Assembly: GCA_016202815.1 (NCBI GenBank)
Contig: JACQNZ010000004.1
Coordinates: forward strand, 57,522-121,521
Origin: Candidatus Aenigmatarchaeota archaeon
GTDB taxonomy: Archaea; Aenigmatarchaeota; Aenigmatarchaeia; JACPZZ01
Direction: 5' to 3'
Length of the DNA stretch: 64,000 nt
A program made the position numbers and the translations under genes. Shown here piece by piece: positions 2,573 through 27,043 of this stretch (position 1 is its first letter; every line of letters begins with the position of its first letter). Below the pieces are notes generated by a model, which saw only the letters and a program-made list of their open reading frames with translations, had not been told where the DNA came from and did not search any database.

Positions 2573-2647
2573 AGAATAGAAATGGGCAAAATATCATACT
2601 AGGATAGTTCGTAAATTAGATTAAATTTCTAAGAACTAACTTAAAAT

Positions 2648-4689: not shown

Positions 4690-4690
4690 A

Positions 4691-5877: not shown

Positions 5878-5884
5878 ATTTGAT

Positions 5885-6472: not shown

Positions 6473-6638
6473 TTACCATAAGAATTTTTTATTGCTTGGC
6501 AATATGGACATGTTAAATATTTTTTGACTTCTATCTCGGGTTCTCCCATAAATAATCTTTTCGTATTTTGATTGATAAGTATTACATCATCCCACTTTTG
6601 TCCAATTTCTGGGAGATATCTATATCCCATAAATTTAT

Positions 6639-6766
6639 TGGGGAAACCGTGATTTGAACACGGGTCACCGACTATCTCTAAGCTTTTCTTTCCCTCAAGG
6701 CTTTCTTTCTTGAAAAGAAAGGCTTGCCCGAAGCCGGTATCTTAGACCAGGCTGGACCATTTCCCC
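6639..6766 (-). tRNA. tRNA-Pro (anticodon CGG) candidate with about 53 nt intron after position 37
   Basis: Hand fold: acceptor GGGGAAA/TTTCCCC, D-loop AGCCTGGTCTA consensus, anticodon stem CCGGC/GTCGG with loop TTCGGG, T-arm CCGTG-TTCAAAT-CACGG, discriminator A; D-stem weak (3 bp); intron contains a 12 bp hairpin; CCA not encoded. Confidence 0.55.
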
Positions 6767-6880
6767 CTTCTTACAGGCACACACCAATATTATGCGCCAA
6801 TCGTTATAACACTCTTTCTTTTATTATGGCCATCATCTTTTAAAATAGGCTTTTATTACGGCTCCGAATTAAGTTAAATA

Positions 6881-9669: not shown

Positions 9670-9735
9670 GCAGATTTTCCCAAAATTTCAACCATCAATG
9701 TTAAATCCCCGCCTGCGCAATCAAATCTGGTAAAA

Positions 9736-11259
9736 ATGAGGAAAATACCGGCTATAATGTCGACCCAGCACCCGGATTGCGCCAGCCTTCCCGATTTCGT
9801 GAAAGGCGACATATTCAGCAACGACGACGAGGTTGCTGAAGCGGCTAACGCCTTTAAGATCGGCTGCGACGAACAGCTTTGGGACTGGGAAGGCAAGGAA
9901 GTGGACACGCATGTTGTGCGAAAGCTGCTTTCTGCGGACGAACGGTTTTTCCGCGAAAACGCGCTTGGCAAGGACGTTTTTATAACTTACCGCATACCGA
10001 ACCCCGAGGTCGAAGGCGCCGAGCGCAAGCTTGTCGTGGAAGCGCTAGAATCAATACCGAGAAACTTCGATGTTGCGAAAAAGTTCTACGGAAACTGCGA
10101 GCCGCCGATAATAGAAGTCGCGCTGCCGATGACGACGTCACACGAACAGATGCTGCGCGTGTCTTCGTACTACGAGAACGTTGTCGTCAATAAAGAAAAT
10201 ATGCCGGTTTACGGCGGCATAAAGCTGAAGGAGTGGATAGGCGAATTCAACCCAAAAACGGTCGGCGTCATACCGCTGATAGAGGACATGCAAAGCATTT
10301 TAAACACCAAAGGAATATTGGGCGGTTTTTTGGCGAACAAGAACGCCGAGTACACACGGCCGTGGATCGCGAGATCCGACACGGCGCTGAACTACGGGCT
10401 GGTCCCGTCGACATTGCTTGTGAAATTTTTCCTGTCATGCGTCGCGGCTTCGGAAGCGGAAACGGGCGTTCCCCATTATCCGATACTTGCCACAGGCGCG
10501 ATGCCTTTCCGCGGAGGGCTAAACCCGGACAATGTGGAAAATTTCCTGGAAGAATATGGAGCTTTCAAAACGTACGCGTTGCAGTCGTCGGCGAAATACG
10601 ATTTTGAGCGCGAAAAGGTGGCGAAGATGATAGATTCGCTAAAAAAGCATTCGCAGCACAAGGCCAAGGAAATGGGCGAGGACGAAAAGCGGGGGCTGCT
10701 AGGCATTGTGGAGGCGTTCTCGGGCGGATACAGGAAAAGGGTGGAAGGCCTGGCGCATGTTGTCAACGTTGTATCAGGCAAGGTGCCGAACAGGCGAAGC
10801 AGGCATTTGCATATAGGGTTGTTCGGCTACAGCCGTAATTTCTCCGATTCTGTAAAGCTGCCGCGTGCGATAAAATTTGCAGCTTCGCTTTATTCGATCG
10901 GGCTGCCGCCTGAAATAATCGGGATAAGCTCGTTGAATGCTGCCGAAAGCAGCGGAAATAAAAACGGGCTTGACAGGCTTTATGTTAACCTAAAAGGCGA
11001 TCTTGCTACAGTGTCAGGTTTAGTTTCCAAATCAGCGATTAAAATAGCATGCGAGAAGGGCTTGATAGGCCAGGAGACGCTGGACATGGTCAATGAAGAC
11101 ATAGAAGCTGTCGAAAGTTTTGGGATCGAAATCGGGGCGAAGACGCTGGAGGAAGAGCAGCACCAGCTTCTTGCCAAGCAGATTGTTTCTAACATAGGCG
11201 ACGGCAAGGTTACCGACAGGATAACCGAGGCTGCGAAAATCAGGAAATCGCTGGGTTAG
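9736..11259 (+). CDS. ppcA: Phosphoenolpyruvate carboxylase, archaeal type
   Basis: About 500 aa with N-terminal IPAIMSTQHPD signature characteristic of archaeal-type PEPC. Confidence 0.8.
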   Translation: MRKIPAIMSTQHPDCASLPDFVKGDIFSNDDEVAEAANAFKIGCDEQLWDWEGKEVDTHVVRKLLSADERFFRENALGKDVFITYRIPNPEVEGAERKLVVEALESIPRNFDVAKKFYGNCEPPIIEVALPMTTSHEQMLRVSSYYENVVVNKENMPVYGGIKLKEWIGEFNPKTVGVIPLIEDMQSILNTKGILGGFLANKNAEYTRPWIARSDTALNYGLVPSTLLVKFFLSCVAASEAETGVPHYPILATGAMPFRGGLNPDNVENFLEEYGAFKTYALQSSAKYDFEREKVAKMIDSLKKHSQHKAKEMGEDEKRGLLGIVEAFSGGYRKRVEGLAHVVNVVSGKVPNRRSRHLHIGLFGYSRNFSDSVKLPRAIKFAASLYSIGLPPEIIGISSLNAAESSGNKNGLDRLYVNLKGDLATVSGLVSKSAIKIACEKGLIGQETLDMVNEDIEAVESFGIEIGAKTLEEEQHQLLAKQIVSNIGDGKVTDRITEAAKIRKSLG

Positions 11260-11285
11260 TTAAATAAGAATATCCAAATAATGGC

Positions 11286-11729
11286 ATGACACCGGAAAGG
11301 GAAATCAAAATAAAGCCGATAGGATTTGTGAAAAACGGCATCAAAAAACCCAGGTTCGGAAATTTTGCGGACGAAATTTCAGAGATAGTCGTGGACAAGA
11401 AATTCGCTGACGGGCTGGATAACATCGGTGATTATTCCCATGTGATCATAGTGTACTGGATGGACAAGGTAAAAGGTTATGTCACAAAACACAAACCGCA
11501 GGGCACCGGGCCTTTAGTCGGGATATTCGCGTGCCGGTGCGCGCAGAGGCCGAACCCTGTCGCGATAACGACTGTGAAACTTCTGGGACGCAATGGAAAC
11601 AAAATAAAAGTCAAGGGCCTTGACGTGTTAAACGGGACGCCTGTGATTGATATAAAGCCGTACTGGCCGCAATACGATAAAGTCAGGAATGGAAAAGTGC
11701 CTTCGTGGGTGGGCAGGCTGAAATTTTAG
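11286..11729 (+). CDS. TrmO/TsaA-family SAM-dependent methyltransferase
   Basis: IGFVKNG...NPVAITTVKLL...GLDVLNGTPVIDIKPYWP matches the TsaA/YaeB-like fold pattern. Confidence 0.65.
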   Translation: MTPEREIKIKPIGFVKNGIKKPRFGNFADEISEIVVDKKFADGLDNIGDYSHVIIVYWMDKVKGYVTKHKPQGTGPLVGIFACRCAQRPNPVAITTVKLLGRNGNKIKVKGLDVLNGTPVIDIKPYWPQYDKVRNGKVPSWVGRLKF

Positions 11730-11780
11730 GGGTTCGGCACATTTTTATACAAAACGCGACAAAGATAATTAAGGAATGTT

Positions 11781-12191
11781 ATGCGGGACCTTGCGCTTTT
11801 GCTTCACATAATGCTTGGGATCTCTTTGGTCGTATTGCCGCTGGTGATACTTTCCAAGCTCGGCAAAAAATCCTCGCTGGCGAGGACTCTTTCCCTTTTG
11901 AGCGCGGGCGCAAGCTGGACCCTCCTTTTTCCTGCCGGCATTTTATACACTATGTTTTATCCGGCTACTAAGACGCTCATCAAGTCAGGAGCATGGCCGT
12001 GGGCACATTCGGTTGTGATGGAAACGAAGGAACATTGGGGCCTGCTGTTGCCTGTGATAACAACTGTGGCGGCGTGGCTCGTCCTTGCGAACAAGGAAAA
12101 AGAAAGCAGGCGATGGTGGGTTCTCGCCGCTGTTTTGGCAGCGTTGCTGGGTGTCATGGGAAGGGTTGTAAAAATGGGGGCTTTGGCATGA
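11781..12191 (+). CDS. Hypothetical membrane protein
   Basis: 136 aa, four hydrophobic segments. Confidence 0.4.
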   Translation: MRDLALLLHIMLGISLVVLPLVILSKLGKKSSLARTLSLLSAGASWTLLFPAGILYTMFYPATKTLIKSGAWPWAHSVVMETKEHWGLLLPVITTVAAWLVLANKEKESRRWWVLAAVLAALLGVMGRVVKMGALA

Positions 12192-12481
12192 CCAAGAAGT
12201 TAAACGTTTACGCAGGGGCGCACGCCGCATCGTGGACGCTGGCAGCTCTTGTTGTTGGCGCAGAGCTTTTGGCGCCGTTAAAGGCCGTGTTAAGCGCAGT
12301 TTTCGGCCACCATTGGATCGGAAAGGCCGTGATCACAACGTTCATGTTTATCGCATTCAGCTACGCGTTCAAGGGAAAGAGACTGTCCAAAAAAACCTCC
12401 GATAACGACGTTGCGTGGAACAGCGCTGTTGGAAGCCTAACCGCGATATTCCTTTTTTATCTGGCAGAGTTTTTACTGTGA
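12188..12481 (+). CDS. Small hypothetical membrane protein
   Basis: ATG at 12188 overlaps upstream stop; hydrophobic 97 aa product; the longer listed ORF start at 11993 overlaps the upstream gene in another frame and is unlikely. Confidence 0.35.
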   Translation: MTKKLNVYAGAHAASWTLAALVVGAELLAPLKAVLSAVFGHHWIGKAVITTFMFIAFSYAFKGKRLSKKTSDNDVAWNSAVGSLTAIFLFYLAEFLL

Positions 12482-12931
12482 TTGTCTATGATACACAAGA
12501 AAAAACACAACGATGCGCCTGTGGGGCTTGTCCTAGTCTTGTTTTTTGCCGCTGCCATAATTTACCTTTTCGCCTCTTCTGACAGTGCGAAGGGCCAAAT
12601 TCCATCGTATGTCACAGGCGATGTGCGCGCGGTTTACGAATGGGCTAGAACACAGGAGGGGAACGATTTGCTGGAACAAATGCCATGTTACTGCGGCTGC
12701 AAGTATGAAGGCCACAAGCATGCCAGGCATTGCTTTTGGAGGGACGACGGGAGTTTTGACAGGCACGGCACAACCTGTTCGACATGCCTGGACATTGCGA
12801 AAAAAACCATGCAAATGAGCAAGCAGGGAAAGAGCGTTTGCGAGATACGAAACGAGATAGACAGGTTCTATGCTCCCAACGTTAACCTGGGGACTAACAC
12901 GCCGATGCCCAGGGGCTGCGCGGCGTCTTGA
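12482..12931 (+). CDS. Membrane-anchored Cys-rich protein with PCYCGC motif
   Basis: N-terminal TM helix then MPCYCGCKYEGHKHARHC and CSTC motifs. Confidence 0.45.
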   Translation: MSMIHKKKHNDAPVGLVLVLFFAAAIIYLFASSDSAKGQIPSYVTGDVRAVYEWARTQEGNDLLEQMPCYCGCKYEGHKHARHCFWRDDGSFDRHGTTCSTCLDIAKKTMQMSKQGKSVCEIRNEIDRFYAPNVNLGTNTPMPRGCAAS

Positions 12932-12956
12932 CCTGTCGGCATTTGAAGGTTTTTGC

Positions 12957-13664
12957 ATGTCAGAACAGCTTGCGTTGGGGATAGTGGTTGCGGCCGCGTT
13001 AGCTGACAGCATAAACCCGTGCGTATTCGGCGTGCTGATATTTTTGCTTGCGTATATGACCCGCGTTTTCAAAAACAAAAACAGGATGCTGCTGGCAGGA
13101 ATTATTTATATCATCGCGGTTTACATCACGTATTTCCTTCTGGGAGTGGGCATATTCACGCTCGCGTACACAGCGGGTTTTGCAAAGCAGTTTTATTGGT
13201 TCGCCGCAGTCGTTGCCATAGCGGCAGGCCTTTTTGAGATCAAGGATTTCTTCTGGTACGGCAAGGGTTTCTCGCTCCAGATAATACCCGGAGGGGCGGA
13301 GAGGATCAAGAGATACTCTAAGTTAATGGAAAGGATGGAAACGAAGCATCCGTTGTTGAGTTTGCTAGTGGCGGCTTTCCTGGGAGTTTTCGTGGTTTTC
13401 GTGGAGCTTCCGTGCACGGGTGCGCCTTACCTTGCGATATTGGGCATGCTGTCCAGCGGCGATTACGCCACAGGTGTTCCCCTACTCCTGATTTACAACC
13501 TTGTTTTCATACTGCCGCTGATTGTCATAGTCGGCCTTGTGTATGCGGGTTACACGTTCAAAACGCTCGAAAACTGGAGAAAAAAGCACAGGGCCCTGAT
13601 GAGGCTGCTTATCGGCCTGTTTTTGATGTCACTGGGCGCGTACATGATATGGGCGGTCATTTAA
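12957..13664 (+). CDS. DsbD/CcdA-like thiol-disulfide transfer membrane protein
   Basis: Polytopic membrane protein with paired conserved Cys in TM segments (SINPCVF and ELPCTGAPYL); start taken at ATG 12957 within the longer listed ORF. Confidence 0.55.
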   Translation: MSEQLALGIVVAAALADSINPCVFGVLIFLLAYMTRVFKNKNRMLLAGIIYIIAVYITYFLLGVGIFTLAYTAGFAKQFYWFAAVVAIAAGLFEIKDFFWYGKGFSLQIIPGGAERIKRYSKLMERMETKHPLLSLLVAAFLGVFVVFVELPCTGAPYLAILGMLSSGDYATGVPLLLIYNLVFILPLIVIVGLVYAGYTFKTLENWRKKHRALMRLLIGLFLMSLGAYMIWAVI

Positions 13665-14805
13665 GCGGTTTTAGGAATTTTTCCAGCCTGTCCATCGCTT
13701 TTTCCAGATTAACCACCGAGGCTGCGTAGCTTATCCTTATCCTTTTGCCGTCGCCGAATTCCGCTCCCGGGACAGTGGCCACGAGGTTTTTTTCCAGAAG
13801 TTGCGCGCTGAATTCTGCGGAATTTTTTGCGCCTTTTCCGAAAAATCCGGACACGTCAGGAAAAACATAGAACGCGCCTTTTGGTTTGTCGATATCAATG
13901 CCCATTTCATCCAATCTTTTGACAACAAAGTCCCGGCGTTTTTCAAACTCCTTTCCCATTGCTTCAACGCTGTCCTGCGGGCCTGTGATAGCCTCGAGCG
14001 CGGCTTTCTGCGCTATCGAATTGGTTCCGGAGGTAGTGTGGTTCTGTATGTTCAGCGCCGCTTTCGTTACGTCTTCGTGCGCGGCGGCATAACCTATGCG
14101 CCAGCCTGTCATAGCGTACGCCTTTGAAAATCCGTTGACTGTTATTGTCAAATCCCTGATCTCTTTTCCAAGCGATGCTATGCTGACATGTTCGGAGCCG
14201 TAAACGAATTTCTCGTATATCTCGTCGGATATCACATAGATTCCGCTTTCTATAGCAAGCCCAGCGATTTTTTCCAATTCTTTCCTGCCCATCACGCTGC
14301 CCGACGGATTGTTTGGGCTGTTTATGATCACGGCTTTTGTTTTCGGCGTTATAGCATTTGCCATGCCTTCAACGCTGTTTACCACAACAGGGTTTCCGCC
14401 GGCCAATCGGATTTGTCCGATGTAACTTACCCAGTACGGAGAGAACACGATGACCTCGTCCTTAGTCTCTACAACAGTTTGCGTGTAATTGTACAGCGAG
14501 TCTTTCGCCCCGCAAGACACAAGCACCTGGCCTGCGGAATAACCGATGCCGTTGTCTTTTTTTAATTTGTCTGCGATTGCCTGGCGTAACTCGGGCAGAC
14601 CTGCGACGGGCGTGTATTTCGTAAAGCCATCGTTCAGCGCCTTTATAGCCGCGTCTTTTATGTTTTGCGGCGTGTCGAAGTCCGGTTCGCCGACGCCGAG
14701 ATCTATGACGTCGATGCCGGATTTTTTCATCTGTTTAACTTTGTTTCCCAGTTCAAGGGTTGCGCTCGGTTTTATGGCCGACGTCCTGGCAGCTAAGGGT
14801 TTCAT
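13657..14805 (-). CDS. Aspartate/aromatic aminotransferase (class I PLP-dependent)
   Basis: NGFSKAYAMTGWRIGY lysine-containing PLP motif and overall AspAT-like architecture. Confidence 0.8.
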   Translation of the reverse strand: MKPLAARTSAIKPSATLELGNKVKQMKKSGIDVIDLGVGEPDFDTPQNIKDAAIKALNDGFTKYTPVAGLPELRQAIADKLKKDNGIGYSAGQVLVSCGAKDSLYNYTQTVVETKDEVIVFSPYWVSYIGQIRLAGGNPVVVNSVEGMANAITPKTKAVIINSPNNPSGSVMGRKELEKIAGLAIESGIYVISDEIYEKFVYGSEHVSIASLGKEIRDLTITVNGFSKAYAMTGWRIGYAAAHEDVTKAALNIQNHTTSGTNSIAQKAALEAITGPQDSVEAMGKEFEKRRDFVVKRLDEMGIDIDKPKGAFYVFPDVSGFFGKGAKNSAEFSAQLLEKNLVATVPGAEFGDGKRIRISYAASVVNLEKAMDRLEKFLKPLK

Positions 14806-14846
14806 AGATCAAAATAATAACGCGAACAATAAAAGCGCGTTGTTTT

Positions 14847-15353
14847 TCACAACAAGTCCAGTTCCAGGCGGACCAGCGACCTGATGTTCCTTATAACCTG
14901 CGCCGCTTCGTGACCTTCATCAATTAGGTTAGGCAGGTCGTCGCCGTGGTCGAACCTGTACCTTCCGTTGGACATGCGAGCACTGAAAACCTGGTTGGGT
15001 GTGAACAGGTGGCGTGGCCGCCAGCCGAGAAGATAATCGCTTCTTGCAAATTCCTGAAGGTCTTCGCGTGAAAAGGTTACGTCGACTGGATGCGTGTGGA
15101 ATTGCGTCAGGAAAAAACCGTTTGCCATGTTTTGCTCCAGGAAACCGTCGATTATTTGTATCATGTCAGGGTCGTCTGTGACCTTGAGTTTTTCTCCCCG
15201 CCCCGTGCGGTAAGACGCTATTACCAGATTATTTCCGGCCGAAGGATACCCCTGCGGTTGGGTGTTGCATATTAAAAAACCGGAGTGCTCTGTTCCTGAT
15301 ACGGAAAGCCTGCGCAGCTTTTCATACTCAACGATTCGCATCAGGTATGCCAT
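14847..15353 (-). CDS. JAB/MPN-like metalloprotease domain protein (putative)
   Basis: FHTHPVDVTFSREDL resembles the JAMM HxH-x-S-xxD motif, spacing one residue off canonical. Confidence 0.35.
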   Translation of the reverse strand: MAYLMRIVEYEKLRRLSVSGTEHSGFLICNTQPQGYPSAGNNLVIASYRTGRGEKLKVTDDPDMIQIIDGFLEQNMANGFFLTQFHTHPVDVTFSREDLQEFARSDYLLGWRPRHLFTPNQVFSARMSNGRYRFDHGDDLPNLIDEGHEAAQVIRNIRSLVRLELDLL

Positions 15354-15485
15354 GCTTAATCAACAAGCCGGAGGAATTTAAGCGCAAAATCAGCAGAACT
15401 CGCAGGCCTTCCTGCTCTTGTAGACTTTCCTTTTGCGTTTTTTCGCAGCCATAGTTATTAATTATCCGGCACCAGTCTTATTGTT

Positions 15486-16352
15486 ATGCCTGTAAATGCC
15501 GGATACGATTATTTCGCTGCACAAAAGAAATATCAGGAAGCCAAGACATTAGATGAGAAAATACGTGCGCTAGAAGAGCTTATTAGAGTGTCGCCCGGCC
15601 ACAAGGGGGCTGAAAATGTGTTGGCTCAGTTGAAAACTAAGCTTTCCAAGTTGAAGTCCCAGAGGGTGTCGGCAAAAAAGAAATCCGGCGGGCGCGTCAC
15701 AACAGTCCCGAAAACCGGGGCTGCGCAGGTCTGCATTGTCGGCTTTGCCAATTCCGGCAAATCCGAACTACTGAAAGCGCTGACAGGGATCGGAGAGCCG
15801 TCGCCTACACCTTATTCAACAAAATCGCCGCGCGTCGGCATGATGCTGTACGAGGACGTCCAGATACAAATTGTGGAGATCCCGTCCAGCATGCAGCCGG
15901 AATTTTTATCCATCGCGCACAATTCCGAGCTGGTTGTTTTTTTATACGATGCCGCGAAGCCCGAAGACGTTGAAAGGCTGATGGAAACAGCCGAGCGGGA
16001 GGATTTGAAAAACGTTTTGTGGGTTGCAAATGTCATTTCGGCCAAGAAAGCGGTGGGCTTTGCAGTAAACGCGTCGACAGGCGAGAACGTGGATGAACTG
16101 AAACGGGCGGTCTGGCACAGGCTAAGGCTTGTGCGGATCTATACGAAAGTTGCCGGGAAACCGGCCGAAACGAGGCCGATGACGCTGCCGAAAGGCTGTA
16201 CGGTCCGCGACGTCGCCCGCGACGTCCACAAGGATTTTTTGAAAAATTTCAAGTTCGCCCGCGTGTGGGGCTCTGCGAAATTCCCGGGAGCGCAGGTCGG
16301 GCTGGACCATATTGTGAAAGACAAGGATACCATTGAGATCCACGTGAGCTGA
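15486..16352 (+). CDS. DRG/Obg-like GTP-binding protein with C-terminal TGS domain
   Basis: G1-like CIVGFANSGKSELL; C-terminal ARVWGSAKFPGAQVGLDHIVKDKDTIEIH is TGS-like; G3 DxxG appears degenerate. Confidence 0.5.
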   Translation: MPVNAGYDYFAAQKKYQEAKTLDEKIRALEELIRVSPGHKGAENVLAQLKTKLSKLKSQRVSAKKKSGGRVTTVPKTGAAQVCIVGFANSGKSELLKALTGIGEPSPTPYSTKSPRVGMMLYEDVQIQIVEIPSSMQPEFLSIAHNSELVVFLYDAAKPEDVERLMETAEREDLKNVLWVANVISAKKAVGFAVNASTGENVDELKRAVWHRLRLVRIYTKVAGKPAETRPMTLPKGCTVRDVARDVHKDFLKNFKFARVWGSAKFPGAQVGLDHIVKDKDTIEIHVS

Positions 16353-16353
16353 T

Positions 16354-16815
16354 TTGTTGGAAAGAAAATTCATCTTTGCGTTGGCTTTTGTTTTGGTTCT
16401 GTTATTTTTGCTGCCGAAACCGTTGAAGGAAAAGACAATCCATTTTCACCCGGGCGGCAATAACGTTGCTTTATCCGTTAAAATAGCGGACACCGGCGAG
16501 GCGAGAGCAGGGGGCCTGATGTTTGTTAAATCGCTTGGCGAAGCGGAGGGCATGCTTTTCGTTTTTCCGGACGAGGCCAAAAGAGAGTTCTGGATGAAAA
16601 ATACACCGGTTCCGTTGGACATGATTTTCGTTTCTTCCAATGGCACGGCTGTCGGCGTGGTTGAAAACGCAATGCCATGTGAAAAAGATCCGTGCCAAAC
16701 TTATTCTGTCAATTCACCGTCCAAATTCGTCGTAGAAACGAACGCCGGTTTTGCAAAGGAGAACGGCATAGGCATTGGCACGCCTCTAAGCGATTTATAT
16801 CAGACAGGCTGGTAA
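16354..16815 (+). CDS. DUF192-family protein
   Basis: GLMFVKSLGEAEGMLFVFPDE...FWMKNTPVPLDMIF pattern. Confidence 0.55.
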   Translation: MLERKFIFALAFVLVLLFLLPKPLKEKTIHFHPGGNNVALSVKIADTGEARAGGLMFVKSLGEAEGMLFVFPDEAKREFWMKNTPVPLDMIFVSSNGTAVGVVENAMPCEKDPCQTYSVNSPSKFVVETNAGFAKENGIGIGTPLSDLYQTGW

Positions 16816-16822
16816 GAATCTT

Positions 16823-17431
16823 ATGGAAAGCGTGAAAGTAAGGAGCATGATGACAACCAGAGTCTCCACAGTAGGCGCGAACCAGACTATAATGGAAGCG
16901 TCGCAGATGATGGGGCGTGAGAAAGTCAATTGCCTTGTTGTCATGGCCGGCCGAAGCCCTGCCGGCATGATCACGGACTCTGACATAACAAGGTATGTTG
17001 TGAGCAAGGGGCTGGATCCGAAGGAAACAAAAGTCAGCGAGGTAATGTCGTCGCCGCTTGTTTTTGTTAGCCCTGAAGACAGCATTGAAAAGGCCAGGAA
17101 AACGCTTTCCGGCCATAAGGTAAACAGGCTTGCTGTCATTGAAAACGGCAACCTTGCCGGGATTATAACAGACGCGGACATTTCGAGAGTGCGAACCGCA
17201 GATAAAATTGATCAGCCACAATCCCCGTTCGACAATAACTTTTCCGAGGGCATGACCAAAAAGCCGGACTGGGACCGGGGAAGCGGATTCTGCGATTTTT
17301 GCGGCAACCACGAGGACGACCTTGTAACATCAGGTGACGAGCGGCTTTGCAGGACCTGTATGGAGCGAAAAAGACAGGCCGGACCATATTGGGTGAGCAG
17401 GAAAAAATCAGGCGAGTCATTTACAGGTTAA
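16823..17431 (+). CDS. CBS-pair domain protein with C-terminal zinc ribbon
   Basis: Two CBS-like repeats followed by CDFCG...CRTC. Confidence 0.6.
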   Translation: MESVKVRSMMTTRVSTVGANQTIMEASQMMGREKVNCLVVMAGRSPAGMITDSDITRYVVSKGLDPKETKVSEVMSSPLVFVSPEDSIEKARKTLSGHKVNRLAVIENGNLAGIITDADISRVRTADKIDQPQSPFDNNFSEGMTKKPDWDRGSGFCDFCGNHEDDLVTSGDERLCRTCMERKRQAGPYWVSRKKSGESFTG

Positions 17432-18791: not shown

Positions 18792-19487
18792 TTGGAAATA
18801 ATAAAGAAGGACGATCAGATGAGTGAAGAACAAATACGTTTATCGGCATCGTCTCTTGGGTTGATGCTCGACTGTGAACGCTGCTTCTGGCTGAAAATTG
18901 TTAAAAAAGTTGATAGACCTAACGGACCTTTTCCTAGTTTGCCAGGCGGCATCGACGCTGTTATGAAGAAACACTTTGATGCCTATCGCAGCAAAGGGCT
19001 ACCGCCTGAACTGGTTGGGAAAGTTGACGGCAAGCTGTTTGATGACATTGAACTGATTGACAAGTGGAGGAATTGGAGGACAGGACTATCGGTTGTAGAC
19101 AATAATATAAAATTAGTTGCGGCGTTTGATGACCTGCTTGTTAACGATGGGAAGTTTATTCCATTTGACGTCAAAACAAAGGGCTGGAAACCGAAGGTAG
19201 ACGCCAAGGATCATTATCAGCACCAAATGGATATCTATGCATACGTGTTGTTGAGAAACGGATACGAGATCTCAGATCACGCTTACCTAGCTTTCTATTA
19301 CCCAGATATTGCCAATGGTGACGGTTCGATACAGTTCATGACGGATGTTGTCAAGGTTGATATTAAACTAGACCATGCGGTCCAGATGCTGAAAGATGCT
19401 GCTAAGGTTATCGAAGGCAGAGAGCCGAAAGCGGCTGATAAATGCGAGTTTTGCGGGTGGAATACAGCTCTAAATAAATGTCAATAA
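18792..19487 (+). CDS. Cas4-like PD-(D/E)xK nuclease with Fe-S cluster cysteines
   Basis: N-terminal CERCFW, nuclease motifs AAFDDLLV / IPFDVKTKG / QHQMDIYAY, C-terminal CEFCGW...C; arrangement matches the Cas4/RecB-nuclease fold. Confidence 0.6.
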   Translation: MEIIKKDDQMSEEQIRLSASSLGLMLDCERCFWLKIVKKVDRPNGPFPSLPGGIDAVMKKHFDAYRSKGLPPELVGKVDGKLFDDIELIDKWRNWRTGLSVVDNNIKLVAAFDDLLVNDGKFIPFDVKTKGWKPKVDAKDHYQHQMDIYAYVLLRNGYEISDHAYLAFYYPDIANGDGSIQFMTDVVKVDIKLDHAVQMLKDAAKVIEGREPKAADKCEFCGWNTALNKCQ

Positions 19488-19864
19488 ACAGTGTTATTAT
19501 CATGGACGATCAGACTACGATTAATGAATTAAAGGGGCTCGTAAGAAAATTTTGTGAAGAGAGGGATTGGGATAAATATCACAATCCTAAAGACCTTGCT
19601 ATTGGAATCATAACAGAATCTTCTGAACTCTTAGAACATTTTAGATTCAAAACAAATGAAGAAACAGAAGAAATGTTTGAGAACGTGAAAAATAGAAAGG
19701 AGATATCAGAGGAGCTATCTGATATATTATATTTTGTTCTTAGGCTAGCGCAAAAATACAGCATAGATTTGTCAGAAGAGTTAAAAGCTAAGATAGAAAA
19801 AAACGGTAAAAAATACCCTATCGAAAAATCGAAAGGATTGAATAAAAAGTATACGGAGCTATAA
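19478..19864 (+). CDS. MazG-like nucleotide pyrophosphohydrolase
   Basis: All-alpha NTP-PPase pattern IITESSELLEHF...EELSDILYFVLRLAQKYSIDL; overlaps upstream gene by 10 nt. Confidence 0.65.
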   Translation: MSINSVIIMDDQTTINELKGLVRKFCEERDWDKYHNPKDLAIGIITESSELLEHFRFKTNEETEEMFENVKNRKEISEELSDILYFVLRLAQKYSIDLSEELKAKIEKNGKKYPIEKSKGLNKKYTEL

Positions 19865-19867
19865 AAT

Positions 19868-21736
19868 TTGAGATTATACGAAGGCACTGTACAAGAGTTC
19901 AAGAAAGATGTGATTGAAAATCGAATAGCTGACATTCTTTCAGAAAACTATTTTATTCAAATTAAAAAAAGGGTAACCCCGTCGGAACAGCGGTCTTGGC
20001 AGGTCTCTCTTAGGGTACTAAAAGATACGCTTGACATATCTGGTTTATTACAAAATAAAATTGTTATCGAAAATAGGCTTCCGTACACAGAGAGGAGGAT
20101 AGATGTGCTTCTATTTGGAAAAGGATATGACGGAACTGATAGGATTGTGCTAATAGAACTGAAGCAATGGTCAAATGATAATGTTTTTGATGATAACATA
20201 GATGGAAATGTTGAAGTCTATTTCGGTAAGAACAAAATACATAGAGAACACCCTTCACTACAGGTACAAGGATATGTCATTGATTTGCAGGATTTCATGA
20301 AATTTTTTAGTGAGATTCCTAGGGTTAATTTAGAAGGGTGCTCTTATTGTCACAATTACAGCAAAAAAGATAACGCTATATTGTTCGCTGAAAGATTTTC
20401 TGAACCCCTGGAAAAATACCCGCTTTTTTCAAAGGAAGATGCTTATGAACTTGGAAACTATCTAAAAGAAAGACTTTCGATTGATCCGGGTTTCGAAGTG
20501 TTTAATAGATTTGATAATAGTGAGATATTTCCGTCTAAGAAACTGTTGGATCACATCGGGGATATGATCAATAAACAGCAAATGTTCAATTTGATCGACG
20601 ATCAAATAGCAGCCTATAATGTGATTATGGATAGAGCAAAAAAACAGGTAAAGCGAAAAGAGAAGTCTGTTATAATTGTAAAGGGGGGTCCAGGCACTGG
20701 AAAATCGGTGATAGCATTGGAAGTTATGGGCGAACTGCTTAGAAAAGGAAAAAAAGTTTTTCATGCCACGGGTTCATCGGCATTTACAAAGACCTTACGA
20801 GATTTGATAGGAAAAGAGAGAAAAAGTGCAGAGAACTTTTTTAAATTCTTTTATGCTTTTACCAAAGCACCAGCAGACGATATAGATGTGCTCATATGTG
20901 ATGAAGCACACAGAATCAGGAGTAATAGCAATGACTGGGGGGTGCCCAGCATGTACAAATCAAAAAATCCTCAAATTGATGATCTTATCAGACCTGCAAA
21001 ACTTTCCGTGTTTTTTATAGATGAATATCAGGTGGTCAGACCCAATGAGGTGGGCAGTATAGCATTGATTAAAGAGTCTGCCAAAAAACTTGGTGTTAAG
21101 GATTCGGAAATATTTGAATTCGAATTAAAAACACAGTTCAGATGTTCCGGCTCTGATACTTATCTGCAATGGTTGGAGAATACGCTCGGTATAAGGGAAT
21201 CTGAAAATGTAATTTTGAATACAGATCTGATGGAATTTAAAATATTCAATTCACCACAAGAATTTTATGACGCCATAAAGCAGAAAAATAAAGAAAAACC
21301 CAACTGCGCGAGAATAGTAGCTGGTTTTTGCTGGCCTTGGAGCAAACCGAATAAAGACGGCACGTTGGTGAATGATGTGGTTATCGATGGTTTTAGTATG
21401 CCGTGGGAAAAGAAAGATGAATTTTGGAAATGGGCCAGAGACTCGTCAGGAATGGAACAGGTGGGTACAGTTTATACATCGCAGGGGTTTGAGTTTGATT
21501 ACATAGGTGTAATATTCGGAAAAGATCTCGTTTATGATTCCACCAGCCAAAAATGGGAATGCAAACCAGAAAATTCGTACGATAATACTGCGAAAAGAGG
21601 AAATTCAAAGTTTACTGAACACCTTAAGAATGTTTACCGTGTTTTGATGTCAAGAGCACACAAAGGTTGTTATGTTTATTTCATGGACAAATCTACGGAA
21701 GAATTTTTCAAATCACGAATAGAAGGATCTAAATAG
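19868..21736 (+). CDS. PD-(D/E)xK nuclease fused to SF1-type ATPase/helicase (DUF2075-like)
   Basis: N-terminal RIDVLLF...IVLIELKQW nuclease-like motif; Walker A KGGPGTGKSV; Walker B/DEAH-like ICDEAHRI; C-terminal TVYTSQGFEFDYIGVIFG helicase motif. Confidence 0.65.
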   Translation: MRLYEGTVQEFKKDVIENRIADILSENYFIQIKKRVTPSEQRSWQVSLRVLKDTLDISGLLQNKIVIENRLPYTERRIDVLLFGKGYDGTDRIVLIELKQWSNDNVFDDNIDGNVEVYFGKNKIHREHPSLQVQGYVIDLQDFMKFFSEIPRVNLEGCSYCHNYSKKDNAILFAERFSEPLEKYPLFSKEDAYELGNYLKERLSIDPGFEVFNRFDNSEIFPSKKLLDHIGDMINKQQMFNLIDDQIAAYNVIMDRAKKQVKRKEKSVIIVKGGPGTGKSVIALEVMGELLRKGKKVFHATGSSAFTKTLRDLIGKERKSAENFFKFFYAFTKAPADDIDVLICDEAHRIRSNSNDWGVPSMYKSKNPQIDDLIRPAKLSVFFIDEYQVVRPNEVGSIALIKESAKKLGVKDSEIFEFELKTQFRCSGSDTYLQWLENTLGIRESENVILNTDLMEFKIFNSPQEFYDAIKQKNKEKPNCARIVAGFCWPWSKPNKDGTLVNDVVIDGFSMPWEKKDEFWKWARDSSGMEQVGTVYTSQGFEFDYIGVIFGKDLVYDSTSQKWECKPENSYDNTAKRGNSKFTEHLKNVYRVLMSRAHKGCYVYFMDKSTEEFFKSRIEGSK

Positions 21737-21791: not shown

Positions 21792-22163
21792 TCATCTTTT
21801 TTTATATCCAAAATATTTTTCATAGGTTCTATGGGAAATTGCATCAAGGACTATTGCCAGTATTTCGATCTCGTTTGTGTGTAAAGTGTATATCAACCGC
21901 CAGCCATCAAAAAGATCAACTTTCCAAAGATTGTTCACATCCGCCATTGTGATGTATCTTTTTGGTATGTATTTTTTGGGTATCTGAATCCCTGAAATGG
22001 GATCAATTTTGAGTTGGTCAATGGCCACCTTGATAGAGCTGAACAATTTTTGTTTTTCAGAATCGACTATGCCCCGTTTTGTTTCATTTTTGACCTCTTC
22101 GTGCAATTCATGTAATTCAGCAGCAACTTCTTTTCTGTTTCTCACCCTGATTCGTTTAATCAC
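21792..22163 (-). CDS. RelE/ParE-family toxin (putative)
   Basis: C-terminal LWKVDLFDGWRLIYTLHTNEIEILAIVLDAISHRTYEKY fits the RelE/ParE pattern. Confidence 0.5.
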   Translation of the reverse strand: MIKRIRVRNRKEVAAELHELHEEVKNETKRGIVDSEKQKLFSSIKVAIDQLKIDPISGIQIPKKYIPKRYITMADVNNLWKVDLFDGWRLIYTLHTNEIEILAIVLDAISHRTYEKYFGYKKR

Positions 22164-22435
22164 GTTTCAGTGCCTTCTCTGATTATTTTGTCAAGTTTAG
22201 GACTAGGGTTGTATGTCCAAATAACACCCTTATGACTATCAATGATCATACCATGATCCTCAAAGTAACTGAGAATTACATTCAATGTCTGATGCATGAT
22301 TTGAACCGGTAACTTTCGTTTGATTTCTTCTCTGCTTATAGCAACGTCAGAGTCCTTTAGAACTTTCTCTACCATACGGACAGTTCTTAGAGTCGGTGAG
22401 TGCAAAATCTCTTGAGTTTGAAGCTTGTTCTTCAT
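22160..22435 (-). CDS. Putative antitoxin
   Basis: 91 aa ORF immediately upstream of and overlapping the toxin by 4 nt; classic TA arrangement. Confidence 0.4.
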   Translation of the reverse strand: MKNKLQTQEILHSPTLRTVRMVEKVLKDSDVAISREEIKRKLPVQIMHQTLNVILSYFEDHGMIIDSHKGVIWTYNPSPKLDKIIREGTET

Positions 22436-22582
22436 AGTTATATCATTATACAGATATCTATATATAGTTATACATAGTAGTAATAATCGTTAAATGTGAC
22501 CTAAGTAGACGTTTTGGGTTTTATTTTCTGTGATTAAAGTCGCCTTGTTGTGATTTTAGTCGTTGTTTTCGGTTACTTTAAG

Positions 22583-22607
22583 CACAAGGCTCCCCCCCCC
22601 CGCGGCG
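22583..22607. repeat. Direct repeat copy 1: ACAAGGCT + C(10) + GCG
   Basis: Same 8 bp core plus poly-C and GCG recurs at 26676-26693. Confidence 0.6.
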
Positions 22608-22980
22608 TTGTAGAGGAAGTCTACTAAATTGACGTACATTAGATACGGAATGGGGACTTTAGGTACAAAACGCCGAAAATAGTTGTCTATTTATTTATCA
22701 AGCAATGAATGGTGATTATTGTCGTCTTAATCGACGGTTTGGCTCTGATCTTCCTGAAAAATAGGGGGATCTTAAATGAAATCGAGAACTTATTCGGGCG
22801 GATCAGAGCTTTGGCAGTTTTAAAAAACGTTGATTGACGTATTTTATTATTTAAATGTCTAAGGTCTAATTATAAAGCGAGATGATCATGGTAAACTGCC
22901 ATGCTATCACCTACAAATAGACTTTATAGGCTGTAATCAGCTTCGCTGGTCGCCTATAGGGGATGAGGCGCGTCGCGCAT

Positions 22981-23631
22981 TTATTTTTTATATTTTTTAA
23001 ATAATTCAATGAAACATTTCGGATCAGGACTTATGTTAATGGTTCTGAAATAATTAAAATTTCTAAGGGTTTCTGCATTTATTTTTCTATGGGATGCTGC
23101 AATGTAATCTGCGAATTTTAGAAGTTTTGTATGCTTTGCATTGCTAACGGAAAAATCAAAATTTCTATTGAAAGAATTACTTATTCTCCTACAACTGTCT
23201 AGCGCTTTGTTTATGTTCATCCAGCTTTCTTCACAAAATACTATATCGTATTTAAGTTCTTGTTTAGATTCTGGAAATGTCATTTGACGCAGTAAAGTGA
23301 AATAATAAATTGCTATTAATCTTTCTTTGAAAAAAGCCTCCTCACCATAATTTCTTTTATAATTAACCCAATCTTGTTGACTTATGGATATTGATCGCAT
23401 TCTAATCTTCCTTTCATCAAAAAATCTTATTATTCTTTCAAGATCTGTTGCGTCTAATTTTACTCCTTTCCATTTAGATCTTTCAAATTCTTTCAAATGT
23501 TCAGAAAATTCCTTTTCTATTTTAGTTATCGAATAAGTTGGTGAGGAAATAGAACCTATAAAGATTTTGTCATACGGTACTCCACTGATATCTATTGCGA
23601 TCTTAATTGGTACTTGTCCCATACAAATCAC
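22981..23631 (-). CDS. Hypothetical protein
   Basis: 216 aa, AT-rich, no motif recognised. Confidence 0.35.
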   Translation of the reverse strand: MICMGQVPIKIAIDISGVPYDKIFIGSISSPTYSITKIEKEFSEHLKEFERSKWKGVKLDATDLERIIRFFDERKIRMRSISISQQDWVNYKRNYGEEAFFKERLIAIYYFTLLRQMTFPESKQELKYDIVFCEESWMNINKALDSCRRISNSFNRNFDFSVSNAKHTKLLKFADYIAASHRKINAETLRNFNYFRTINISPDPKCFIELFKKYKK

Positions 23632-23714
23632 CTGTTTAGAGGGTTATATTAAAGCGGTGGTAGTTGTCTGAATTATCAACTATCTTTTAAATCAGTCAAC
23701 TTCGTTTATTTTTA

Positions 23715-24689
23715 CTAATCACTAATACTCATATTCAGATTTATACTATAATCTTGAGATTCTTTGATCAGTACGCAGATGTTGTGTGATAATATCTTGC
23801 ACAGTAGTTCATTCTCTTGTGCAGTTCTATTCTTTGATTTCAACGAATCTCCAAACTTAGCTTTAATCATAGAGAACGTGCTCTCGATGTTGCTTCTTCT
23901 ATGATAGTGAGCCATAAATTCCGGTTGCCTGAATTTGAAATAGTGATACATTTTATGCCAAATTGGCGAGCCTTTGCTCTTTCCTGTGGTGTTTACTTTA
24001 AACGGAATGAACGCTTCCACGCCCAACTTATCAACGATTTTGTAATTTTCTCTTGATAGATAGGCTTTGTCCGCCGAAACCTCTTCTACGTTGAAATCTT
24101 GTACGGTTTCTTCTACCAATGGACTGAATTGTTTAATATCCGCTCCGTTTTCATCTGTGATTCTAACAGCGGTTATCAAGTTTGTTTTTGTTCCACAGAT
24201 CGCATGACACTTCAGCCATTTATGTTTCCTTGATAATCCATGCTTTACGATGCAGTATTCCGTAAATCTCGTTGTTCTGAAGCCTGTTGAATCTACGGCG
24301 AACTGAGTTTCTAAATCCTTCAAAGGTAAAGCTGTGAGAGTTATCAATCTGTGGAGTATTGGTGTTATTGTTGGATTGTTCAAAACCTTAGAGGTAGCTG
24401 TGAAATGCGGTGATTTCTCGATTATTTCATCTTCTTCGGCATTATCGAACAGACCGTTAGCCCTTCGGCACGACATCATAGAGTAGACTTTCTTGATAGA
24501 ACAAAACAACAAATCTCTAAGAGGTAAGGTTGGTCTGCCGAATTTGTATTCCGGTTCTTCGACACCTTCGAGTAAGTCTTTCAGAAGAACGTCAAACTGG
24601 TTTAACTCCATACACTGTGCTCTATTGTAAGCTGGCCAGTTCTGGGTGCTTTGTTGTTTCCAGAGGTCTTGTAACGGATTGTTTTTCAT
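23715..24689 (-). CDS. IS4/IS5-family DDE transposase
   Basis: DDE_Tnp_1-like C-terminal block YHRRSNIESTFSMIKAKFGDSL...KNRTAQENELLCKILSHNICVL. Confidence 0.75.
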   Translation of the reverse strand: MKNNPLQDLWKQQSTQNWPAYNRAQCMELNQFDVLLKDLLEGVEEPEYKFGRPTLPLRDLLFCSIKKVYSMMSCRRANGLFDNAEEDEIIEKSPHFTATSKVLNNPTITPILHRLITLTALPLKDLETQFAVDSTGFRTTRFTEYCIVKHGLSRKHKWLKCHAICGTKTNLITAVRITDENGADIKQFSPLVEETVQDFNVEEVSADKAYLSRENYKIVDKLGVEAFIPFKVNTTGKSKGSPIWHKMYHYFKFRQPEFMAHYHRRSNIESTFSMIKAKFGDSLKSKNRTAQENELLCKILSHNICVLIKESQDYSINLNMSISD

Positions 24690-24746
24690 AGTGTTATTAG
24701 GTACCTATAAATATTTAAATAGATAGGTACCGAAAGATTATATGTT

Positions 24747-24914
24747 ATGAAGCTTCAAAAACAGCTTTCTCGCAAAGCCGGAAACGTTGTATATCCCAAG
24801 TGGGTCATTGTAATATCCCCTAAAGATATAGATAAACTGGGCTGGAAAGAAGGTGTTGAACTGGAATCAGAAACAACACAAAACAAGTTATTGTTGAAGC
24901 CTAAGAAAAATTAA
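24747..24914 (+). CDS. AbrB/SpoVT-like small DNA-binding protein (putative)
   Basis: 55 aa ORF below the track cutoff: MKLQKQLSRKAGNVVYPKWVIVISPKDIDKLGWKEGVELESE... resembles swapped-hairpin AbrB/MazE-type domain. Confidence 0.3.
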   Translation: MKLQKQLSRKAGNVVYPKWVIVISPKDIDKLGWKEGVELESETTQNKLLLKPKKN

Positions 24915-24932: not shown

Positions 24933-26120
24933 TTATTTACTGTTTGTTAATCTGTTTAACTCTTTTATCATTTCGGATATTGGAATTTTTTTATCGGCTC
25001 GCACTAGTTTTTCTATAAGTTCTATTTGAGTTTGGGTAAATCTGGGGCTAAGGTTTTTACGTAGATGATTTTCGAGTAACCATAAATCTTCAAACGATCT
25101 CTCATTACTCCAAGGTGCATTTCTTATGTATTTTTGTATCATCTTCTCTGTATAGGCTATTTCTATTGGGATTATGTAAATCTCGGGACACTTGCTCCTA
25201 AGGAAAGATTCTATGGTGTTTGGTGTAACCGAATAAACTTCACTCAGAATTTCGTCTTCTATTATTTTTTTGTATCTTTTCCTTGATGGTTCATTTTCGT
25301 GTCCTTCTTTAAACAGGCTGTAAACCGTTGTACCTACATGACTTACAACTTCTCCTGTTTGATGACCGCTTTCTAACCATCCTTGAAAATCTTTGTTCTT
25401 CAGGTCTATGAAATCCACGAGTTTTATGCTATTAGAACCTCCTCCTTGTCTCCAGTTTCTTATCCATCCATCACAAACCAAGCTCCATATAGGTAAGAGA
25501 CGGGAATTAATTATTTTTCTATCACCGGAAAATATCATGGGCACAGCTACACAGAATACGCGTTTGCCCGTCATCATCTTGAAGAACACTATTTTCTTAC
25601 ATATGGAATCGAACGCTGGATATTGTCCATAATGAACTCCGTAGAATAGTGCCAAATGATCAAATTTCTCGGATTTAGCTGCCGGTATTATTTGATTCTG
25701 TATGACGACATCTTCTAACTTGTAAGACACCTCGAGTATTATGTCTTTTTTAGAAAACCCTCTTTTCAGGATTTCGGCCAGTTCTATTTTTTCAACTACA
25801 TCGTACTCCGTTTCGTCTTTGAAGTATGGCAATATTATGAACTCTCCGTTCATTTTTATCTGCTCTTCAACGACACTCTTCAATATTTTCTTCGAGAATG
25901 TAAGATACGAACAATCGGGATAATTAATTACTCCCATATTCTCATTTATCTGATCATTGACTTTTTCGAACGGCTGATCTTGATTAGTTTTGTTGAAGAA
26001 AACTTGTCTTTCCACGAATTCTATTTGCATGTCGTCCAGATCGGATGTCTTGAACATCCTAAACGGAGCGCGTAAAACTTTTCCACTTTTAGTTTGTAAA
26101 TTATCTTCCATCTTTAACAT
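24933..26120 (-). CDS. Hypothetical protein, 395 aa, no recognisable family
   Basis: Long ORF last in a three-gene minus-strand operon. Confidence 0.4.
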   Translation of the reverse strand: MLKMEDNLQTKSGKVLRAPFRMFKTSDLDDMQIEFVERQVFFNKTNQDQPFEKVNDQINENMGVINYPDCSYLTFSKKILKSVVEEQIKMNGEFIILPYFKDETEYDVVEKIELAEILKRGFSKKDIILEVSYKLEDVVIQNQIIPAAKSEKFDHLALFYGVHYGQYPAFDSICKKIVFFKMMTGKRVFCVAVPMIFSGDRKIINSRLLPIWSLVCDGWIRNWRQGGGSNSIKLVDFIDLKNKDFQGWLESGHQTGEVVSHVGTTVYSLFKEGHENEPSRKRYKKIIEDEILSEVYSVTPNTIESFLRSKCPEIYIIPIEIAYTEKMIQKYIRNAPWSNERSFEDLWLLENHLRKNLSPRFTQTQIELIEKLVRADKKIPISEMIKELNRLTNSK

Positions 26121-26406
26121 CTTCCTCTCTCACTACGAAGGTGAAAAGTTTAAGGTAGTCTGACTGTTTCATCCTTTTCAACGATTCGGCGTATCTCTGA
26201 ACTGTAACACGGTGTATACCAAGCTTGTTCGCAAGAATTGTGTTATTATAACCTTTCGCTGAGAGTAAGAATAAATTTTTGAGCAATGCCATATTCAATG
26301 AATGTTCCCTGCAAATTCTATTGATTTCTTCCTCTTCTTTTAGTGAAGATAACAGTTTGCTCATACTACTAAGTGTAGCATCCTGATATTTAAATATATC
26401 GGTCAT
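26101..26406 (-). CDS. HTH transcriptional regulator
   Basis: ILANKLGIHRVTVQRYAESLKR helix-turn-helix segment; overlaps downstream gene by 20 nt. Confidence 0.45.
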   Translation of the reverse strand: MTDIFKYQDATLSSMSKLLSSLKEEEEINRICREHSLNMALLKNLFLLSAKGYNNTILANKLGIHRVTVQRYAESLKRMKQSDYLKLFTFVVREEDVKDGR

Positions 26407-26585
26407 GTTTCCTCGTCTTCTGGGTACAGGATATACACAATTTTTCCGATGTCTTCTTGCGGAAAATTAACTTTACCACTGGACTCGTTATTTTTCGAAA
26501 TTGTAACCGTTCTTATTTGGCCGAATTTTATCTGATCGAAAGAAAACGAACCCTTGAACTTTCCATTGATCTTAATTGATTTCAT
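26403..26585 (-). CDS. Small hypothetical protein
   Basis: 60 aa ORF overlapping the HTH gene start by 4 nt. Confidence 0.25.
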   Translation of the reverse strand: MKSIKINGKFKGSFSFDQIKFGQIRTVTISKNNESSGKVNFPQEDIGKIVYILYPEDEET

Positions 26586-26675
26586 ATAGCTAAAATTAGC
26601 TATTAATAGCTATAAAGCTTTTGTATTGACTTTAGCTACAAACAAGCCACTTTAGCTACAAAATCGACTTCTGCT

Positions 26676-26693
26676 ACAAGGCTCCCCCCCGCG
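26676..26693. repeat. Direct repeat copy 2: ACAAGGCT + C(7) + GCG
   Basis: Matches copy 1 in the same orientation, about 4.1 kb away. Confidence 0.6.
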
Positions 26694-27043
26694 ATAACTT
26701 TATATACAAGGTATGATATAGTAGGATATAGTGGTATAATGTCGTATACGCTAATGCAATTGCCTGACGGGGGCGGGACGCAATGCGTTGCGCGCAGGCC
26801 TGCCCCCGTTTTCATGCTCACTGCCAGCACAAGTGAGAAGCTGGTTTCTCGGCAAGTAGAATTTCTTTCTACGCCAGCCATGCCGTTTGGCCAGTTTGTA
26901 GTTGGGAACGGACGGCGTCCGTTCCAGTTTCAGGGAGGTGGACTTTATGTAAAATTGGCCGGAGAGTATAAACACGGAAATCCGTGGGAAAGCAGACAGG
27001 GTATGCTTTTATGCCGCGGGTTCCCGGAAACATGAAACACAGA

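Follow-up and report, generated by a model that had tools for sequence, protein, structure and literature searches.

Two genes on the minus strand of a 64,000-nucleotide (nt) stretch of DNA from a Candidatus Aenigmatarchaeota archaeon (GenBank assembly GCA_016202815.1, contig JACQNZ010000004.1, positions 57,522 to 121,521; hereafter "the window") form a self-contained module that is carried in mobile or defence islands of DPANN archaea, where it is embedded among restriction-modification, toxin, nuclease and insertion sequence (IS) genes. One gene encodes a helix-turn-helix (HTH) protein of 101 amino acids (aa); the other, directly downstream and overlapping it, encodes a 395-aa protein that is confidently modeled as a (β/α)8 triosephosphate isomerase (TIM) barrel, whose nearest structural neighbors are, judged from the model, transglycosylases of the tRNA-guanine transglycosylase (TGT) type. 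We read the pair, tentatively and with a confidence that stays well below even, as an HTH-directed or HTH-regulated effector of nucleic-acid base excision or base exchange, working in defence or in addiction.

Two genes that stay together

The original prediction, made from the letters of the window, had described three overlapping minus-strand genes of 60, 101 and 395 aa, and the list of open reading frames (ORFs) has them exactly there, each with an ATG start: the 60-aa ORF at 26403-26585, first in the apparent operon, the HTH gene at 26101-26406 and the barrel gene at 24933-26120. Between the first two the overlap is 4 nt (ATGA); between the last two it is 20 nt, which shrinks to 11 nt if the barrel gene starts at its fourth codon, at 26111. 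That is likely the true start, giving a protein of 392 aa; Met4 is invariant in a 13-sequence alignment and is also the start in the NCBI record (HY516_02205). The two larger ORFs are real genes, since their homologs reach E values of 1e-134 (395 aa) and 6e-31 (101 aa), and the 101-aa gene is translationally coupled to the barrel gene. Database matches place the window proteins in a Candidatus Aenigmarchaeota metagenome-assembled genome: HY516_02205 matches the 392-aa form at 100% identity, HY516_02210 the HTH protein and HY516_02200 a 55-aa ORF on the plus strand. In the NCBI record the HTH gene begins at Met15 (87 aa); residues upstream of Met15 are kept in homologs from three other loci (L012, L025 and L027), and the 101-aa reading is therefore preferable.

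The operon of three genes that had been proposed is accordingly reduced to two: the 101- and 395-aa genes are real and paired, and the 60-aa ORF is no conserved part of the unit. It is unverified as a gene, because the NCBI record of the contig has no annotation there, a database search for homologs retrieved just its own identical copy, and the only family signal is a sub-threshold one to DUF2080 (E 0.05). It may be a small DNA binder of the AbrB/DUF2080 kind. Other small ORFs occupy the matching position elsewhere: a 59-aa AbrB/MazE-like one in L003 and a 62-aa zinc-ribbon one in L013.

Relatives of the pair are few. A collection of 5.8 billion clustered proteins has 13 relatives of the 395-aa protein, and an exhaustive profile search of 1.8 billion found 47 representatives of its family; the HTH protein has only nine relatives in the protein database. 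The survey of gene neighborhoods that the original prediction had proposed as a check was made on 13 further distinct loci (L001, L002, L003, L006, L007, L012-L015, L023-L025 and L027; L026 and L028-L030 were left out of the comparison). In all 13, and thus in 14 of 14 with the window, a gene for an HTH homolog of about 100 aa stands immediately upstream of the gene of about 385 aa. The two mostly overlap, by 4-32 nt; in two loci a gap of 0-2 nt separates them. The identities of the two proteins to their window copies correlate (r = 0.92 over nine loci). Flanking genes are different at every locus, so that nothing resembles a housekeeping family with conserved core synteny, the outcome that had been named as refuting the original prediction. 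In the minimal locus, L024, the pair has no companions, its neighbors being a NAC-domain gene on one side and a TctA-family gene on the other; since nothing besides the pair is conserved anywhere, the unit is one of two genes. It is horizontally mobile, with a foreign base composition and with flanks that differ from locus to locus.

Where the records carry names, the module is confined to DPANN-type archaea: Aenigmarchaeota, Woesearchaeota and "Nanohaloarchaea", together with an unclassified archaeon. A single contig labeled "Omnitrophica" carries RadA, CDC48 and NOG1, and is for that reason archaeal.

The smaller partner was called an HTH protein at the outset, and its weak, sub-threshold matches support the call: HTH_Crp_2, HTH_IclR, HTH_11, HTH_29 and DNA_pol3_delta_C at 1e-4. 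The HTH models that it weakly resembles are winged-helix or sigma region 4-like, with no Xre-type model among them, and its L007 homolog matches HTH_23. PADLOC has no model for it, returning only noise at E above 1e-3.

A barrel and its possible kin

The 395-aa protein had been assigned to no family, and the searches leave it there. Scans of Pfam, NCBIfam, PADLOC and PHROGs gave no match; 31 aligned members compared with Pfam at E up to 10 gave no recurrent family and only scattered noise, one member matching Glyco_hydro_53 weakly (E 0.04); and a sequence-profile search of the PDB gave nothing below E 0.2. Structure prediction with a fold search, also suggested originally, yields a confident barrel and weak matches to known structures. 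The AlphaFold2 model, built from the 13-sequence alignment (predicted local distance difference test, pLDDT, 92.2; predicted template modeling score, pTM, 0.91), has three short N-terminal strands and an eight-stranded β/α barrel in residues 1-221, two β-hairpins in residues 222-265 and a helical domain in residues 266-395. Foldseek finds for it in the PDB only weak glycoside hydrolase barrels of families GH53, GH2 and GH18 (E about 1e-3, template modeling score about 0.3).

It had further been said that the protein shows no catalytic motif. No known family emerges, and yet the predicted barrel has features of its own, with conserved acidic residues at the ends of its strands. Conservation, scored over the 31 aligned members, singles out D69 (29 of 31), at the C-terminal end of the third barrel strand, E103 (30 of 31), just after the fourth, and D217 (25 Asp and five Glu), immediately before the eighth. 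Strand 7 (VFCxAVP) ends at an invariant proline, P194, with no acidic residue there. There is also a conserved D236-x2-D239-x3-K243, together with conserved Trp and Tyr. Among the 31 sequences there is no conserved cysteine cluster and no conserved histidine, C70 and C190 being partly conserved.

Among the closest known systems are bacterial TGT, archaeosine TGT and QTRT1/QTRT2 (PF01702), DpdA (PDB 7UI4) and Cap10 (PDB 9NTN). DpdA is the DNA-guanine transglycosylase of the Dpd restriction-modification system. The TGT superfamily (PF01702), whose active site is at the C-terminal face of a (β/α)8 TIM barrel, has this fold in common with the 395-aa protein. In the TGT/DpdA family, three invariant aspartates serve as acid/base (strand 3), base reader (strand 4) and nucleophile (strand 8), and a structural zinc site is formed by CXCX2CX22H (PMC10164549); matched by eye, D69, E103 and D217 would fall at or near the same three strands as this triad. 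Cap10, a TGT-family protein of the type IV cyclic oligonucleotide-based antiphage signaling system (CBASS) that is clearly homologous to QTRT1, offers a comparable set, its D73/S74, D122, K154 and D248 being paralleled, again by eye, by D69, E103, K134 and D217 (bioRxiv 10.1101/2025.04.06.647259). The architecture invites comparison as well: the three N-terminal strands of the model are positioned like the β-sheet lid of TGT and constitute a possible lid, and the hairpins and helical domain follow strand 8, where DpdA has its Ins8 insertion (PMC10164549). Eight colinear motifs can be set against those of E. coli TGT (395-aa family first): LPxRMF/TPCFMP, FFNK/ILGNT, YPDCS/LTDSGG, PYFKDE/MIFDEC, ILEISYK/FGIIQG, FDxLAIFYG/FDGYAVGGL, VFCxAVP/YLMGVG and CDGWIKNWR/FDCVMPTR. 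These correspondences, like the others made by eye, are leads, not tests. On fold rank, on the strand placement of the acidic residues and on architecture, a transglycosylase- or glycosylase-like action of the barrel is our leading hypothesis.

The same comparison supplies much that weighs against it. The residue equivalences to TGT, DpdA and Cap10 were drawn without superposition, and they are inexact: E103 is a Glu in place of Asp, and D217 stands at the start of its strand, not at the end. The zinc motif CXCX2CX22H is absent. None of the members matches a Pfam TGT model at E up to 10; hhalign, run against E. coli TGT and against a profile of seven TGT sequences (aligned from phage-collection records), gives a probability of 0.2% or less, with the best alignment off register; and Foldseek, run against the PDB, picks no TGT at all. 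Genes of 7-deazaguanine synthesis are near none of the loci. PADLOC-DB 2.0 has no model for either protein of the pair, a scan of IMG/VR viral contigs turned up no relatives, and the link to conflict genes that is described below is guilt by association over only 14 loci. With the hhalign result and the absent zinc motif, membership of the TGT family is not assigned to the 395-aa protein.

Differences of setting go with the differences of sequence. DpdA keeps both the aspartate triad and the zinc motif and lacks the N-terminal lid (PMC10164549); the 395-aa family has no zinc motif. The DpdA operon has dpdB to dpdK and preQ0 genes, none of which is near the HTH/barrel pair, and the partner of DpdA is a ParB-like ATPase, that of the barrel an HTH protein of 100 aa. 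Cap10 works with a QueC-like Cap9 and a CD-NTase; such genes are not seen at the pair loci, and homology of the barrel to Cap10 is a candidate relationship only. In the full-text literature, DpdA, Cap10 and TIM-barrel defence nucleases such as QatD are described; a pairing of an HTH protein with a TGT-like one in DPANN archaea was not found there.

What the pair may do

The suggestion of a role in defence or addiction is drawn from the company that the pair keeps. Genes of conflict stand within a few kb of it at several loci. Neighbors within about 5 kb are a divergent C5 methyltransferase in L003; an N4/N6 methyltransferase and an MvaI/BcnI nuclease in L007, which also has a PDC-M08B-like protease; a type IIG restriction-modification enzyme in L023; a type III res subunit in L025; an NYN/HEC-09 nuclease in L001; and a PIN domain protein in L027, which also has a Csa3-like winged helix protein. 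A methyltransferase lies within about 3 kb at three of the 14 loci (L003, L007 and L023); there is none in the window cassette. AbrB/MazE-like small ORFs recur at five loci (the window, L002, L003, L006 and L015), and L002 has a weakly matching SocA/Panacea-like neighbor. Another small ORF, encoding a zinc ribbon (CxxC...CxxC, about 50-60 aa, with a weak match to DUF7571), was noted in L003 (7026-7175, minus strand), L007 (6625-6774, plus strand) and L013 (3268-3456, plus strand): in the first two it is directly upstream of the methyltransferase genes, in the third directly upstream of the HTH/barrel pair.

Upstream of the window operon, a segment at 26586-26675 contains five boxes with TAGCTA, including TTTGTAGCTAAAGT twice, from which we infer a putative operator and promoter. 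Other loci have repeated or palindromic boxes of their own at the corresponding place (TATACCTATTAGGTATAT twice in L013, for example, and others in L023 and L012). Such boxes would fit autoregulation, though they are generic.

In the mechanism that we tentatively favor, the barrel would be a zinc-less, highly diverged relative of the transglycosylases (TGT, DpdA, Cap10), or an analogue of them, with D69, E103 and D217, at or near three of its strands, attacking the N-glycosidic bond in DNA or RNA. A base would thereby be excised, leaving an abasic, toxic lesion, or it would be swapped for another. The HTH protein would repress the operon through the repeated TAGCTA boxes, and would either deliver the enzyme to DNA or restrain it. 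The pair would serve in the conflict between host and mobile element, as a defence or as the means by which the island makes itself indispensable (addiction). A sharper proposition, and one that we consider rather doubtful, is a new immunity or addiction system restricted to DPANN archaea, in which a zinc-less, extremely diverged transglycosylase-like barrel removes or replaces DNA bases, as a "restriction glycosylase" or a base-exchange enzyme, while a dedicated HTH subunit targets or gates it. Were it true, conflict systems would have taken up the TGT fold independently for a third time, DpdA and Cap10 being the earlier two, and this would be the first archaeal case.

Is the barrel a restriction-type nuclease instead? 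The HTH protein would then time expression in the manner of a C protein, by way of the operator boxes; the barrel would be an endonuclease that needs Mg and that either depends on modification or has a methyltransferase as its partner. The operons of type II restriction-modification systems in which a C protein precedes a restriction endonuclease do look like this one: the small HTH gene is upstream of the effector gene and overlaps it, the promoter boxes are repeated, and methyltransferases are adjacent in some of the pair loci. In L007 a methyltransferase, the HTH gene and a gene for 388 aa follow one another on one strand, the C5 methyltransferase of L003 is divergent, the type IIG enzyme of L023 is nearby, and the zinc-ribbon ORF precedes methyltransferases and pair alike; moreover, D236-x2-D239-x3-K243 and other acidic residues could bind a metal. 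This is nevertheless a quite unlikely reading: the HTH partner matches no model of the Xre type, to which known C proteins belong; most loci have no methyltransferase close by, and the one in L007 already has a plausible partner in MvaI/BcnI; PADLOC matches no restriction endonuclease model; and the effector fold is that of no known restriction endonuclease. A type II-like toxin-antitoxin pair, in which the HTH protein is a DNA-binding antitoxin that neutralizes a large TIM-barrel toxin and so stabilizes the island, is unlikely as well. The gene arrangement fits (a small DNA binder first, overlapping a larger gene, and strictly co-inherited with it), the module resides on islands and beside IS elements, and the AbrB/MazE-like ORFs and the SocA/Panacea-like neighbor are in keeping with it; on the other side, 385 aa is unusually large for a toxin, and the barrel matches no known toxin family. 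The toxin-antitoxin label is in any case compatible with the base-excision reading, naming as it does the logic of the system and not its chemistry. Both of these explanations overlap in their logic with the reading that we favor, and the real alternative is an enzyme acting on sugars or small molecules, with a private regulator.

That alternative, an ordinary metabolic or carbohydrate-active TIM barrel (a glycoside hydrolase or an aldolase, for instance) that spreads with its own transcription factor by horizontal transfer, is improbable to the same degree as the nuclease. Sugar-binding sites typically have Trp, Tyr and acidic residues like those conserved here, and there is the one weak Glyco_hydro_53 match. 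In clan GH-A, however, the catalytic Glu follows strand 4 and the nucleophile Glu follows strand 7; E103 does follow strand 4, but strand 7 has the invariant P194 where the nucleophile should be. Conserved genes of sugar transport or catabolism are absent from the variable flanks, the surroundings are dominated by restriction-modification, toxin and IS genes, and an overlapping, co-diverging HTH partner that is found nowhere else is unusual for a simple regulator. Much the least probable proposal is that the pair is itself mobility machinery, an OrfA-like HTH protein with a new recombinase or transposition helper, responsible for the insertion that the direct repeat bounds. The likeness of the HTH protein to transposase-type models (HTH_29 in the window, HTH_23 in L007), the OrfA/OrfB-like gene overlap, a cassette with a 15-nt direct repeat and no integrase, and transposases of IS5 or IS6 type adjacent at seven of 14 loci are suggestive. 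No homolog, however, is found in more than one genomic context or has spread into multiple copies; the inverted repeats have nothing but a transposase between them; no consistent terminal repeats surround the pair elsewhere; and we know of no recombinase with the TIM-barrel fold.

The island, and what the pair may mean

The mobile context that was originally proposed for the operon is borne out by a low-GC island, a direct repeat and an IS element. The island extends from about 19.3 to 26.7 kb, with 36% GC (range 0.29-0.40) as against about 48% in the flanks (about 0.41-0.51). The segment described as repeat-bounded is delimited by an exact 15-nt direct repeat, ACAAGGCTCCCCCCC, with both copies on the plus strand: the right one (26676-26690) falls on the GC step at which the island stops, the left one (22584-22598) splits the island, and together they bound a cassette of 4,092 bp. 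These are the only exact copies in the window, where 0.05 matches are expected by chance. Within these 4.09 kb lie the operon, the 55-aa AbrB-like gene that is convergent with it, an IS5-like element and an orphan gene of 216 aa; neither the cassette nor the island as a whole has an integrase. Each copy of ACAAGGCTCCCCCCC is followed, in the direction of a minus-strand operon, by its own pair of tandem boxes of about 20 nt (in the flanks 22530-22610 and 26625-26700). This arrangement has the appearance of two cassettes that entered a single site one behind the other.

The adjoining transposase that had been pointed out is an IS5-like DDE transposase at 23715-24689 on the minus strand (Pfam DDE_Tnp_1 1e-24; NCBIfam IS5 9e-36), and it belongs to a separate IS, not to the operon. 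The element (23589-24725, minus strand) has imperfect 25-nt inverted repeats at 23589-23613 and 24701-24725; these bound the transposase alone, and the element inserted independently, with the operon on one side and the 216-aa gene on the other. The transposases that adjoin the pair at seven of the 14 loci are IS5-like (the window, L002, L006, L007 and L023) or IS6-like (L013 and L015). In L002 and L007, as in the window, inverted repeats enclose just the transposase, and a composite transposon with the pair as passenger of IS5 was rejected on these grounds. A search for terminal repeats around the pair at eight other loci found nothing consistent, a 12-nt direct repeat in L012 being within chance.

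The other cassette genes are the 55-aa AbrB/SpoVT-like ORF (24747-24914, plus strand), which is convergent with the barrel gene (TIGR01439 AbrB 1.3e-3; MazE_antitoxin 5.5e-3) and has a 63%-identical homolog near the pair in L015, and the 216-aa orphan (22981-23631, minus strand), whose 5' end is overlapped by the left IS5 inverted repeat. The orphan has no family match in Pfam, NCBIfam, PADLOC or PHROGs and no homolog in the other loci; compared with the genes of about 215 aa that lie downstream of the pair in L002 and L006, it is part of a set whose members are not homologous to each other. Its motifs "IAIDISG" (N-terminal) and "FADYIAASH" (C-terminal) we take to be DUF3800-like, although Pfam reported no such family.

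Further to the left are overlapping ORFs of 91 and 123 aa (21792-22435, minus strand), just inside the left repeat copy, the second weakly YoeB-like (RelE/YoeB type, E 0.02), which are probably a toxin-antitoxin pair. On the plus strand at 19478-21736, the gene of a MazG-like pyrophosphohydrolase runs into the start region of the gene for a 622-aa helicase of the Schlafen/DUF2075 type (PADLOC matches to PDC-S41, Nhi and AbiO; a weak, sub-threshold N-terminal NERD match); these two probably make up a defence pair of their own within the island. At its left edge (18792-19487, plus strand) is a gene for a Cas4-like PD-(D/E)xK nuclease with four cysteines. Orthologs of this four-Cys nuclease, with 40-62% identity, lie within 6 kb of the pair in L014 (3880-4560), L023 (5611-6258) and L027 (470-1144), and it might be functionally linked to the pair.

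Some observations on the surroundings are added here. Between the operon and an HD-domain gene, and abutting the right repeat copy and the GC step, is a non-coding segment (26700-27043, GC 0.50) that folds on the plus strand at -124.7 kcal/mol (z -3.5 versus shuffles; z -2.6 for the minus strand). It may be an unrecognized non-coding RNA gene serving as the integration target; Rfam gave nothing credible in it, around the operon or in the window, and the window has no tRNA genes. A second low-GC stretch, at 1-7000 (0.34-0.39 as against about 0.5 elsewhere), may be another foreign island. In L006, on a 55-kb Logan contig, the pair is embedded in long runs of small same-strand ORFs with no Pfam matches (1-7000 and 9000-17000), along with a GP17-like gene and two transposases; the contig has the look of a DPANN plasmid or virus-like element.

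The genomes of DPANN archaea are tiny, and few defence systems have been recognized in them. The effector pair, conserved but unannotated and living in variable islands, is a concrete candidate for one that is missing, and an easily tested one at that: only two genes are involved, about 1.5 kb altogether, and the point mutants to make are clear. Should glycosidic bonds in nucleic acids prove to be what the barrel acts on, the theme of TGT, DpdA and Cap10 would reach into archaea, and into a minimal two-gene format that dispenses with deazaguanine synthesis genes. Should its chemistry be another, there is still an orphan family of well-folded TIM barrels whose HTH partner is obligate.

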